A stretch of DNA of 64,000 nt. Origin: Octopus vulgaris (lineage: Eukaryota). This document shows positions 11,701-63,624 of the stretch, piece after piece. Numbering within the stretch: position 1 is the stretch's first letter; the number at the start of each line of letters is the position of its first letter. A program made the translations under genes and the position numbers. The DNA lies in NCBI GenBank assembly GCA_951406725.2, contig OX597833.1, positions 20,398,001 to 20,462,000 on the forward strand, written 5' to 3'. The notes under the pieces are model-generated. The model made no database searches, had not been told where the DNA came from, and was given only the letters and a program-made list of their open reading frames with translations.

Positions 11701-14700
11701 GGGAGGCCTGCTGGAAGTTCCCTCATGCGCATGGGAGAAAACTAGCCTTATTCTACGTCTAGCGAAGCATATTCTACTCTGTTAACGAAACTAAAAGTGA
11801 ATCATTACATATACTCATACACGCATATAGGTTAGTGAATAACGAGAGAACAAGAATTATATCATTAGCTGTTTCTCATATAAAAATAGTGCGTTCAGAG
11901 CTGAGTGCTTGTGCAACATCTTATAGCTTCTCCGGAGTCGTTTTGAGGATCAGAAAATGAGTAGAACGATGTCTAATCAGTGAGCACAAAACATGAGTGC
12001 TGATGTGCTAAGGTCCAATATAAATTCATTATATGTTTACATGAGAAGGCGCATGGCTCAGTGGTCAGAGCGTCGACTCACAATCATGTGGTAGTGAGTT
12101 CGAATCCCGGACTGGGCTGTGTGTTGTGTTCTTGAGCAAGACACTTTGCTTCATTTCAGTCAGCTGTAGAAATGAGTTGCGACGTCACTGGTACCAAACT
12201 GTATCGGCCTTTACCTTTCCCTTGGGTAACATCGGTGGCATGTAGAGGGGAGGCTGGTATGCATGGGCAACACTGGTCTTCCTCAAAACAACCTTGCCCG
12301 GAATTGTGCCTCGAAGGAGAACTTTTTAGGTGCAATCTCATGGTCATTCATGTCTGAAGGGGTCTTTATCCTATGTTTTCTTATTTAGCAATTTCCATAA
12401 AAATTTCATATGGGGAAAAACTAGTCTACACAAAGATCTAAAAGGCGGCGTATATTGTATTGGACAGTAAATGAAGCTATGGACAAGTCACTGCACATCA
12501 TCATCATCAACCTCTGGACATCATTACTGTCGAGAGCCCTTAAGACCCATAAAGTTGGTGTTTAATTCGATTTCTATGATGTATAAGGGATGGAAATGGC
12601 GCACCGGATCGTCGCAGGGTTATTCGTTTACAGCTGAGTAGAGTGGAGCAACGTAAATAGAAGTATTGTTTTGTACAAGAACATAACAGAGTACCTGGTT
12701 CAGGAATGGAAACCGCAGTCTTGCTTACGGAACCTCTGCAACGAGGCCGCGCGCTTTCAGAAACCGCTGTGTACAATTAGTTAATGCTTGATAAAAGAAA
12801 ACCATTTTTTTCTTACTTTATATTTATTTCTATTTTCATTTTTGCAAAACATGCAGAGACGGCATTTGTAAAATGCTGTTTAGTATACAGTTGGGGAGCT
12901 GATCTATAGACATTATTTTGTTAATGTTATTTCTTCAGATATTCTATAGAAATTATAGCCGCCAGATGTAAACAAACAATGAGATCGAAGACAAAAATGG
13001 ATAATGAGTGTATATACCATATTTCGGGGTTTTTTTGCTCCTTCATCAGCGCCCATCTAACCCACTCTCGTAGCTGAACACATTGCTTATATGGCCACCA
13101 CATACAGTGGTGTTAAGTTACTGGATATACCAATTTATATGTTAAACGCATTCCTGGAGCTGGTATGTAAACATTAATGACTTGTAGGTACGTGGTATTT
13201 CGTTATGCAACCATAATATACTATAAAGTATATTAAACGTTTTTACAAGTCAACACCACGTCCTACTGTGTTAGCAGTGCTTATTACATTATTTTAAGGT
13301 TTTTCCTACAGAAATATGGGTGCTGATAAAGGGGGAAAAACCCTACGAGATATGGTATATACACTCATTACTCTTCGATCTCATTTACATCTGACGTCTC
13401 AATACAAAATGTTGTAGCAAAATATCAGTGCTGGCTCGGGACTACTAGAGGGCAGAACAGCAGGGAGACCCACACCTCCCAATCAGGATCACCCATATAC
13501 TGCATGATCCCCACCAAATAAATTGGCACCGCTTTGGGGAAGATGGACACGTTTAGTTTGTCCAATGTGAGGGCACATATCCAGCATAGATGAACCTATC
13601 CGACATAGCTCCCCACACGGACGTAAGCTATTTCACCACGCCAAGGTCGTGTCCATAAGGGTAAAACCTGGGAGTGCATCCAACTACCGAGAAAAACAAC
13701 GGGTCATAACACACCAGACATCCAAAAAAGAGCATCACGGTGGCGCATCCACCCACTGAGTCCCGGCAGGTCATAACATACCAGACACACCTGGTGGTGC
13801 ATCCACCTACTGAAAAAACAGAAGATCATAACGCACCAGGCCCTACAAAACCTTAATAAAATAATGTAAAGAGCACTGCTAACGTAGTAGGACGTGGTGT
13901 TGACTTATAAAAACATTTAGTATACTTCATCATATATCATGGTTGCATACCGAAATACCATGCACCTACAAGTCATTAAAATCTATAAACAGCCACGAAT
14001 CATTACACTATACCAACTAGACAAACATTTCATTGAAGCACAAGAAGTTCACTAAGTGAAATAACTTATTTTATCGTGAAGAGCAAGATCGAACTAAAAT
14101 CTCTGTTGAAAGATCCTACCCTAAAATTAAGACATATTTTCTTGACAACAAGCTGGTTTATTACACTTTGTGAACTTTTATACTTCGTATTTTTCGATGC
14201 TGACCAACATTAGTCGTCTCAGATTTTTTCCCTTCCTTACTGCAGTAATATACTTTAATCTGTATTATATTCCTCTAGGCTGTTCGTTTAGAAGCTTTTC
14301 ATGATTTATTCAACTGACATTTCTTTGGAGCATGCGTTTCAACCTGCAGAATTATTCAGCTACTTCAAAAAGCTTAGTCAAGTAAACAGTTATGGCTAGG
14401 TCTGTGTGGTTAAAGAGTTTGCTTCACAACTATGTGGTTCTGTGTTCAATCTTAATGTAGCGAAGAAGGTATACTCTACCATAGTCACGGACAGACCAAT
14501 ATCTGAATGCGTTTCTGTAGCGGATACGGCACCGAAACCAACTGAATATAAATATATGTAGTAGATCTTGCAAGCATGAAGTGGATTCGATCCACCATAG
14601 CCAAATTTAAATTAACACTGCAACAGAACTTTTCCCACGGTGGAACAATGTTTTTTCTCTGACAGCAGTTTTACATTTTCCAGATGCCTTTAGCTAGGCC

Positions 14701-61613: not shown

Positions 61614-63624
61614 GAAATATTTATCTTAGCGAGGTTTAGCACATACATACATACATACATACATACATACATACATACATACATACATACATACATACAT
61701 ACATACATACATGTACATTTCCAGAAATGTCTCTGACGAAAGTAGCATTAATTTTCTTAGGTTGTTCAATTCACCTCAAATGATCCACTGATCAAATGAG
61801 TAAACCTATCAGTAATGTACCTATAATGATTACTGGAAACAGATGTAAGCCAGATTTGTTCTTATAGAGGAATTATATGTAATGACCATTATTTTAAATT
61901 TGTTTCTTATATATCACTCTGTAAAAACCAGTTTATCTGGTGCCCATCCACGGATTTACAAAATAGAATTATGATGAACCATAACTTGGAAACCTACCAC
62001 ACGATTACTCGGAGTTCTTTACTAATCTAACTAATAATGTTAGCTTGGTGCACCAACAGAGAGCTTATGAAGTATTTTGCATATATATATATATATATTA
62101 TATATATATATATATATATATATATATATATATATATATATATATACCGGAGTAAACACATAAATGTGAAACAAGGTGGAAAAAGGAGTACTCAATACCA
62201 GTGGTAGAGTAATATGCTTTATTTAAAGCAGCATAAAAATTCAACAAAACCTGTTACTCTGAGTTTCCCGTTGCCGTTGTCCGATGAACGGCAACGGGAA
62301 ACTCAGAGTAACAGGTTTTGTTGAATTTTCTGCTGCTTTAAATAAAGTATATATATATATATTCTAACATTTAAAAGAAAGATTACATAAGAAACACGAA
62401 ATTTAAAACATAGAGCAAACGGCGAAAATAAATATATCGAGAATGTAAGTTACGAGAATAGACCTCACACGTGGTAAATAAAGGGAATAATAAAACACAC
62501 ATTAAAAATCAAACGCCAGAAACATCGACAGTATACTGGTAAATAAAAACCGAAGCAAAAGAAAACATTGAGAAATATGTATAAAGAGGAACAAGTTTCA
62601 AGAACAAAACATTTTAAAGATAGGAAGTCGAGCACAATAAATCTAAAGGTGAAAGAAGTTAATAAATAAAAAATTAACAAAAGATTCTATTGTAGCTCAA
62701 TGAAAATACCTCGCAAGGATAGAGCTTAACGATAAAATAGCAACGATAGTAAAACGAGCTAATCTGGACAAGGCAGATTTTTATCTGGACAAAGCAGATT
62801 TAAATCTGGACAAGGCAGATTTAAATCTGGTTACAACAGATAGCAGCTGGTTCAATGAAATAATTCGTGCAGCGAATACTTTCGAAGGAAAGTCGATGAT
62901 CACTCGGGTCAACACATACATGAATATTGGTTTCAAAGGCGGCGAGCTGGCAGAAACGTTAGCACGCCGGGCGAAATGCGTAGCCGTATTTCGTCTGCCG
63001 TTACGTTCTGAGTTCAAATTCCGCCGAGGTCGACTTTGCCTTTCATCCCTTTCGGGGTCGATAAATTAAGTACTAGTTACGCACTGGGGTCGATATAATC
63101 GACTTAATCCGTCTGTCTGTCCTTGTTTGTCCCCTCTGTGTTTAGCCTCTTGTGGGTAGTAAAGAAATAGGTATTCCGTCTGTCTTTACGTTCTGAGTTC
63201 AAATTCTGCCGAGGTCGATTTTGCGTTTCATCCCTTCTGGGTAGAAAAATTAAGTACCAGTTGCGTACTGGGGTCGATCTAATCGACTGGCCCTCTTCTC
63301 CAAATTTTCGGGCCTTCTGGCTGTAGTAGAAAAGAATATTGGGTTCAAATTTTAGTACAAGGACAGCAATGCTCAACTGGTACTTTATCGACTTCGAAAG
63401 GATGGAAGGCGAAGTTGAGCTCGATGGAATTTGAACATAGGTGGTAAAGACGGACGAAATGCGACTAAGCATTTTGTCCGGCGCGGTTTACGATTCTGCT
63501 AGCTTGCCGCCTTAAACACACAGGAATATTGAAAACCAAGCAAACAACGTGAAAACAGACACACAGACAAAAATATAAGAATTTCAGTAAACCTAACTGA
63601 ACTCAAAGACGTAAGTGCACAGTT

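Follow-up and report, generated by a model that had tools for sequence, protein, structure and literature searches.

Minimal hammerhead ribozymes in the terminal repeats of Penelope-like elements (PLEs), the pseudo-LTRs (LTR, long terminal repeat), have been described as many divergent families per genome, mostly single copies with a palindromic helix III, and as opposite-strand pairs 100-700 bp apart (PMC4209133). In Drosophila Penelope, the promoter is followed by an intron and then the hammerhead, with the intron ending at helix I (PMC4209133; PMC8557442), and PLEs are known for intron retention (PMC8557442). The Hydra clade, which includes Hydra-1_Obim, is defined by the marks RWK, DKT, CxCX5C, CxxC and CxH around a GIY-YIG endonuclease (EN) placed at the C-terminus, and its elements target (TA)n and have an inverted truncated arm, a one-sided tail and a 3′ hammerhead (PMC8557442). 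For an anole PLE, in vitro reverse transcription starts inside the RNA, uncut RNA is the dominant substrate and cleavage is assisted by protein (PMC11167929). Hammerheads in PLE pseudo-LTRs, including those of one octopus Hydra family, are published already, and their role in PLEs is an open question (PMC8557442; PMC11167929).

Here we analysed a window of 64,000 nucleotides from the 2.8 Gb genome of Octopus vulgaris (G000:C20:20398001-20462000, contig OX597833.1), in which hammerhead motifs lie within and beside an SLC6 transporter gene. Genome searches, each made with a site of the window, gave six families, A-F. We consider it likely that the motifs belong, as type I hammerheads, to the terminal repeats of PLEs inserted in (TA)n and of derivatives of such elements, and that the short copies are complementary DNAs (cDNAs) of an uncut 5′ leader.

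Families B and C have the C-terminal GIY-YIG domain, the RWK/DKT/CxCX5C marks, the (TA)n target, the inverted truncated arm, the one-sided tail and the 3′ hammerhead in common with described Hydra-clade PLEs. Furthermore, stems I and III of B nearly match those given for Hydra-2_Amil (coral) and Hydra-2_Ajap (sea cucumber), and C and E have the extra U-U pair before stem II of many Hydra entries. Unlike B and C, Hydra-1_Obim as described has another hammerhead sequence and no pseudo-LTR, and B and C differ from the listed Hydra elements in that their 3′ regions are long and repetitive (about 1.3 and 2.4 kb) and that thousands of their copies consist of the leader only. No match to the motifs of C, A, D, E or F turned up in the supplement text of PMC8557442, where line breaks can hide matches. 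As in Poseidon_Ac of the green anole (PMC11167929), the hammerhead lies at the junction of pseudo-LTR and open reading frame (ORF), the tail lies between two internal start sites of the reverse transcriptase (RT), and uncut RNA appears to be inserted; whereas the Poseidon_Ac ORF starts inside the hammerhead and its evidence comes from in vitro work, the ATG of family C lies 137 nt beyond the cut site and the evidence consists of thousands of genomic copies.

In a mainly open-access literature we found no report of these families, of run-off copies or of spliced copies, and the supplements of a bioRxiv preprint (10.64898/2026.07.22.740005) and of PMC13282606 may list some of them; in the main text of the latter, a 2026 repeat annotation of this species, the words "ribozyme" and "hammerhead" are absent. 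What seems to us noteworthy are the sharp leader ends, the spliced majority in family E, the genome-wide read-through of the cut site and the young intact elements.

Hammerhead motifs in the window and in the genome

An earlier note on this DNA had described hammerhead folds or remnants of them at ten stretches, and the letters that it described are present at all ten. A strict first scanner gave one match in the window (48339) against a mean of 0.1 in 30 shuffles and missed four real motifs. We then used a relaxed scanner that permits C at core position 4, one mismatch at 10.1-11.1 and a stem I with 5 of 7 pairs, a relaxation made post hoc, after the sites had been viewed. It found five intact motifs, 13004-13056(-), 15953-15996(+), 28753-28805(-), 48338-48399(-) and 61538-61614(-), against a mean of 0.065 (maximum 2) in 200 local dinucleotide shuffles and none in the reversed sequence. 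Since the relaxation was post hoc, an independent sample of 80 evenly spaced 10 kb stretches (0.8 Mb) was scanned, yielding 14 matches versus a mean of 0.8 in 30 shuffles. Stem III, whose self-complementarity the scanner does not require, was wholly self-complementary in 10 of these 14 matches compared to 5 of 59 shuffle matches (Fisher p value = 4e-6; 18 of 77 shuffle matches with a stem III below 4 nt were excluded, and four of the 14 real matches belong to one family). Across all loci collected, the 216 scanner matches represent 43 different stem III sequences, of which some are variants within a family.

These results bear out the claim of real hammerheads above shuffled background. The reading of them as type I, with a palindromic stem III, and as parts of the terminal repeats of PLEs from many families is also right. 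Of the ten sites, five are intact, three are family members with a weak or broken motif and one (34010) is a decayed orphan. A CUGANGA...GAAA...UH core with three pairing stems is present above chance, C being allowed at position 4 as in family B and other families; 52687 does not have it. As a candidate hammerhead, 52687..52744 on the minus strand was rejected: it has no stem I beside an NUH, or valid cut triplet, and its genome search returned only itself. As a correction to the earlier note, 15949 and 62277 belong to one family (74% identity over ~220 nt).

The stated density of one motif per 6-7 kb includes decayed sites. Intact motifs occur once per 13 kb in the window, ~4.5-fold above the genome average (Poisson p value = 0.006, for a window chosen for this), and the genome-wide extrapolation is ~46,000 intact motifs (24,000-79,000), or ~1 per 60 kb. 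The counts of 2,000-9,000 in PMC4209133 were obtained with a different descriptor, and most octopus motifs keep a short helix III, unlike the set given there. Exact-pattern counts, which are lower bounds and were made for B, C, D and E only, gave 6,891 motifs for B, 5,363 for C, 875 for E and 468 for D, with all reversed-pattern controls at 0; families A and F are old (~80% identity). As the earlier note had observed, the sites lie mostly near (TA)n: 7 of 10 are within 250 nt of a (TA)5+ tract versus 25% of random positions, the others being both family A sites and 52687.

Standard annotation does miss these motifs. An Rfam scan of the window listed no hammerhead in 150 of its 199 matches, only microsatellite-driven microRNA matches; a rescan of 48250-48500 gave no hammerhead, and a second small rescan gave Hammerhead_3 at 28770-28820 below threshold only (11.9 bits, E 9.2, cut-off 48.5). 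Rfam would thus overlook motifs in the tens of thousands, many of which lie within introns or perfect fold-backs. Many additional hammerhead families with different stems were seen at L012, L089, L186, L196, L213, L227, L232 and L234, and likewise at L250, L252, L264, L272, L291, L307 and L325; in most of them stem III is palindromic and (TA)n follows 100-300 nt downstream.

Probable leader copies of families B, C and E

The window copies of these three families are as follows.

15878..16093, plus strand: family B short copy, in the order inverted partial arm, hammerhead, tail, short (TA)n
15953..15996, plus strand: family B hammerhead, C at core position 4, GNRA loop II, one central unpaired base in stem III; antisense to the host gene, in an intron
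62147..62352, plus strand: fold-back copy of family B with the inverted repeat 62212-62352, flanked by (TA)n tracts, core 62277-62320
28672..28805, minus strand: family C 134-bp copy, the pseudo-LTR leader of a Hydra-clade PLE, with predicted start site 28805, hammerhead 28753-28805, tail and (TA)n; host-sense, in an intron
61404..61640, minus strand: family E short copy of the spliced form, with the two exons joined between 61621 and 61620; lies upstream of the first coding exon of the host
61538..61614, minus strand: family E hammerhead, intact, long stem II

In the fold-back copy of B, the core at 62277 is intact (C at position 4) and stem I is shortened by the fold-back. A first search for family B was captured by an unrelated neighbouring repeat, and its loci L031-L055 were excluded from the family.

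Upstream of the C hammerhead, 6 of 25 loci continue on the tail-bearing arm, and a walk in this direction reaches an ORF with RT and GIY-YIG ~2.4 kb away, colinear in L316, L318 and L324. A search with the N-terminal part of this ORF gave 20 loci, 10 of which have a 5′ pseudo-LTR, always with the same geometry: TATAAAT at -28, YAG at +1, the cut site at +46 and the ATG at +183/184. The tail ends at +134/135 (two loci). The C protein carries all five Hydra marks (RWR, DKT, the CxCX5C linker, CxxC and CxH). The same search returned a second ORF family with many 727-aa open frames, and in both fetched loci of this kind (L386/L387) the family B hammerhead and tail stand directly before the ATG. 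The B ORF is known from parts and not from one whole reading: its N-terminus in L386/L387 has RWK and DKT, L332 has the C-terminal CxxC and CxH, and L342/L332 hold ORF remnants (RT thumb, EN end) upstream of the motif. A single ORF with RT followed by a C-terminal GIY-YIG is thus seen in C and, from pieces, in B. Since both families continue into such ORFs, their short window copies are pseudo-LTR pieces of autonomous Hydra-clade PLEs, the clade being assigned by protein motifs. The anatomy of EN-bearing PLE insertions, namely a (TA)n target, a pseudo-LTR, an inverted 5′-truncated arm and a one-sided tail, is found in B, C, D and E, with tails of 60-90 bp instead of the 30-40 bp given for such elements, and family A has no (TA)n ends in the window.

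The B and C tails (window 62147-62215 and 28672-28740) have a short hairpin motif TACTC...GAGTA in common, and a similar stretch follows the hammerhead in coral Hydra-2_Amil; it is a candidate RT start or recognition signal. Two more ORFs with RT and GIY-YIG, of other PLE types, lie in or beside family C copies (L313:592-3867 and L320:7672-9747).

The ends of the short C copies are sharp. Nineteen of 25 C loci, including the window copy, begin at the same C, seven bases before the core; six of them are single-armed and the rest fold back into an inverted, tail-less arm. The short copies span +1 to +134. Genome-wide, the 11 native upstream bases are kept in 2,359 of 5,363 C motifs (48 among the first 100 listed), compared to an expected retention of ~91% from the 0.85%-per-base loss measured at the cut site, whereas 3,856 of the 4,060 C copies with post-cut sequence also hold the six bases before the cut. 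Copies therefore stop sharply at the 5′ edge of the hammerhead, where about half of those of C begin, and not at the cut; by genome-wide pattern counts, C copies that start at the cut site are not in excess. The TATA box stands 28 bases before this stop, a spacing that is constant across diverged spacers.

Independent support comes from family E, which is mostly the exact GT-AG spliced form of a 1.2-kb unit. Three long copies are AT-rich units of this size, and the short form, to which the window copy belongs, equals the long form minus a segment of 897-926 nt that starts with GT and, in two of the three long copies, closes with a CTGAT resembling a branch point, a run of pyrimidines and AG, 14 nt short of the core. 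The junction letters fit GT/AG only and not the 5-bp microhomology nearby. There are 278 exon-1 matches, and the first 100 listed comprise 74 spliced and 26 unspliced ones; both forms have one common 5′ end (L383). The layout agrees with the promoter, intron and hammerhead of Penelope, the difference being that PLEs are known for keeping the intron. An upstream extension of E from one junction is present once in the genome and was set aside as a junction artefact, and the 6.6-kb stretch between two unspliced E starts holds no ORF.

We propose that transcription would start in the pseudo-LTR just before the hammerhead, and that the RT/endonuclease would nick (TA)n and begin reverse transcription within the RNA, at the tail. 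On the leader start site the RT would then copy only 130-250 nt before running off the 5′ end of the RNA, often folding back or switching template to give the inverted arm, and the template would be uncut at the moment of copying. Given the internal RT start and the uncut substrate reported for the anole element (PMC11167929), together with the sharp leader ends and the splicing, run-off copying of the leader is the simplest model. By extension, PLEs might shed abundant leader retrocopies in the manner of strong-stop cDNA, with the RT starting in the 5′ pseudo-LTR and running to the cap, and the spliced E leader might have become the majority form, maybe as an emerging hammerhead-bearing element resembling short interspersed elements (SINEs); on this extension our own judgement is evenly divided. 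If true, most solo hammerheads in the genome would be direct maps of PLE start sites and splicing, and the copies would record genome-wide that the inserted RNA is not cut by the ribozyme. Young intact Hydra-clade elements with thousands of near-identical copies constitute a natural dataset and clonable material, with which one could test the timing of ribozyme cleavage, the position of the transcription start, the reason for the usual retention of introns in PLEs and the origin of retrozyme-like units such as D.

Several observations weigh against the explanation preferred here. The 5′ ends of B are scattered (from -22 to +18 among query-biased loci and from -108 to +36 among 11 loci met incidentally). 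For C, context was viewed for ~22 of the ~3,000 copies that have no native upstream bases, a count that other upstream variants would inflate, and fold-back arms are counted twice among the copies. Furthermore, the C start site is predicted from spacing alone, and the C edge is also a small palindrome and a pyrimidine tract with YAG, so that a fold-back stall or a splice site could explain it. The spliced E copies could stem from one or a few splicing events followed by amplification. Finally, families A, D, E and F yielded no parent ORF, and the monomeric hammerhead fold of C lies near its minimum-energy fold (-7.9 vs -8.2), which bears on the predicted dependence on dimers.

The scatter of the B ends would suit an explanation that gives the start site no role, in which the short B and C copies are ordinary 5′-truncated 3′ ends: the RT starts at the 3′ pseudo-LTR and stalls or folds back once past the hammerhead. 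PLE insertions are typically truncated in this way and carry an inverted arm (PMC8557442), and many C junctions use a 3-4 base palindrome at the edge. We nevertheless consider this explanation unlikely, because the six single-armed C copies begin at the same base as the fold-backs, the TATA spacing is held over diverged spacers, spliced and unspliced E begin at a common 5′ end, and a structural stall would be expected on entering the fold rather than on leaving it.

Families D and A as probable retrozyme-like units

Non-LTR retrozymes are defined as ORF-less head-to-tail units with at least two consecutive intact hammerheads (bioRxiv 10.64898/2026.07.22.740005; PMC7229834), a structure that bears on two families of the window.

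48102..48685, minus strand: family D element, a non-coding 476-bp unit present 1.23 times head to tail, with the direct repeat 48102-48209 / 48577-48685
48338..48399, minus strand: family D hammerhead, intact; host-sense, in an intron
12957..13385, minus strand: family A element, ~360-bp body, old (79-88% identity to other copies), inverted partial copy 13316-13385
13004..13056, minus strand: family A hammerhead, intact core, weak stem II; intronic, host-sense

Every D match, in 27 of 27 loci, derives from a single 476-bp unit whose pieces are arranged head-to-tail or inverted and whose longest ATG-initiated ORF has 36 aa. Dimers with two intact hammerheads occur in L088, L097 and L388, the motifs being 498 nt apart in the last. 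Family D therefore has the structure by which non-LTR retrozymes are defined. Because D copies cross the cut site over more than one unit, their template would have been tandem and uncut, or circular. Contigs of four runs that we guess to be RNA cover the D unit; ends, strand and circles are not readable in them, and they provide no evidence either way. Signs in family A are weaker and point to a period of ~390 bp, with a same-strand pair in L004, partial ones in L009 and L013, and decayed upstream motifs. The scanner is passed by 10 of 32 aligned A copies, and the window site at 13316 is an inverted, core-mutated copy of 13004. Family D is thus likely to be a genuine retrozyme-like unit, non-autonomous and copied in trans from RNA that was tandem or circular, and A is likely an older one.

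Like the retrozymes described in PMC7229834 and the bioRxiv preprint, D and probably A are ORF-less partial-tandem units of 380-500 bp with a type I hammerhead in a genome with active PLEs; unlike them, D is dispersed as one or two units, with a PLE-type tail, inverted arms and no long arrays, and is known here from genomic sequence. A consensus 5′ splice-site hexamer lies ~35 nt upstream of the D core (window ~48420-48432, minus strand); YAG stands directly before stem I in family A and 10 nt before the core in B.

The earlier note had extended such an origin to every family, seeing many small non-autonomous ribozyme retroelements. For D, and less clearly for A, this view stands; B and C join ORFs with RT and GIY-YIG, and E and F are short, with no parent found. 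As an account of all families as independent retrozymes that spread via self-cleaved circular RNAs, we regard it as very improbable. The closed, ORF-less tandem unit of D, its dimers and its copies across the cut site speak for it, as do the same-strand A copies 391 nt apart in L004. It is refuted for B and C, which belong to ORF-bearing elements and whose tandems contain the ORF; the short B, C, E and F copies are single or inverted and not tandem (L112 holds one short direct duplication of E) and so do not fit non-LTR retrozymes, and no excess of C copies starts at the cut.

The search for autonomous partners with GIY-YIG and RT, which the earlier note had suggested, succeeded for B and C, whereas the loci collected for A, D, E and F held no ORF that could be assigned to them as a parent. 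PLE protein matches stand at inconsistent places in 1 of 29 loci of A, 3 of 24 of D, 2 of 24 of E and 1 of 24 of F, and in the two inspected (L100, L101) the match is separated from D by (TA)n. A family of ~1,270 aa with RT and GIY-YIG beside a D copy was considered as the D parent and rejected as a separate insertion, for it has no sequence in common with the window families. This young family (L292:3517-8035, also L262-L299) has frames up to 1,271 aa and at least 150 matches at 97-100% identity. It terminates in (TA)n and has inverted truncated arms; its CX4CX2C linker is Neptune-like when read by the descriptions in PMC8557442, and its whole ORF gave no Pfam match. A hammerhead-like motif in its 3′ region (L292:7817) has C for core A9, and the A form occurs in L360 and L361.

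Folding, host gene and neighbouring features

Helix III is self-complementary in the intact motifs, as in minimal or dimeric PLE hammerheads, and partially so in C (5 of 7 pairs). In all five, the helix III self-duplex (-4.6 to -13.9 kcal/mol) is favoured over the monomer hairpin (-1.4 to +2.9). Only for C is the monomeric hammerhead fold near the minimum, so that C need not depend on a dimer, and the D monomer favours another fold by 12 kcal/mol. With helix III self-complementary, most motifs are predicted to cut only as dimers or with help from protein, and lone intronic copies would be mostly silent. Dimeric PLE hammerheads have reportedly been treated by Lunse et al. in 2017. The fold-back at 62277 (family B) would be sequestered within a 140-bp hairpin that it forms itself.

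2686..53034, minus strand: host gene of the SLC6 type, glycine-transporter-like, with 12 mapped coding exons (53034 down to 2686); the 3′ end may extend past the last mapped exon

The gene was assigned by Pfam (PF00209), and the best protein match of the query exon is named glycine transporter 1-like of Octopus vulgaris in its source (98% over the exon). Its first coding exon is 52852-53034. Since the exon map runs from 53034 down to 2686, the sites from 13004 to 52687 are intronic and 61539 and 62277, which the earlier note had placed inside the gene, lie upstream of the first coding exon and so outside the coding span.

Nothing suggests that the three host-sense intact intronic motifs are more than tolerated insertions. 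That the copies at 13004, 28753 and 48338 are kept because they cut or regulate the host pre-mRNA is hardly credible to us: all three intact minus-strand motifs within the coding span are host-sense, the monomer fold of C is close to the energy minimum, and the (TA)n end of D lies ~110 nt upstream of a host 3′ splice site, but the numbers are tiny (three sense, one antisense intact motif), the divergence of the copies equals that of other members of their families, with the C copy 99-100% identical to dispersed young copies, and genome-wide strand counts cannot show gene orientation without annotation.

The remaining motifs of the window are the following.

25731..25775, plus strand: family F minimal hammerhead, intact core, loopless helix III, weak stem I in the window copy
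34014..34059, minus strand: decayed motif resembling a hammerhead, with a stem I of 4 bp, a core that has lost one base and a palindromic stem III (by eye)

The family F element (~25625-25895) has an inverted arm and a (TA)n end, and the majority of the family passes the scanner. Near-perfect inverted repeats at 25907-26114 (208 bp) and 25462-25609 (148 bp) flank it, possibly fold-back PLE ends or miniature inverted-repeat transposable elements. The motif at 34010, for which no genome-wide family search was included, had no match in the 0.8 Mb sample.

Other features of the window include a slightly diverged duplicate of coding exon 42530-42628 in inverted orientation at 43908-44003 (+) and a telomere-like (GGGTTA)7.5 array within an intron at 19106-19150. 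Open frames at 7302-7685, 42900-43319, 44310-44491, 46979-47287 and 49403-49729 resemble, by eye, RT remnants of long interspersed elements, and a Pfam search gave no match for them. Two abundant SINE-like repeat families of ~220-400 bp occur in both orientations, one at 58583-59016, 60267-60483 and 4267-4483, the other at 24594-25135 and 52380-52597.

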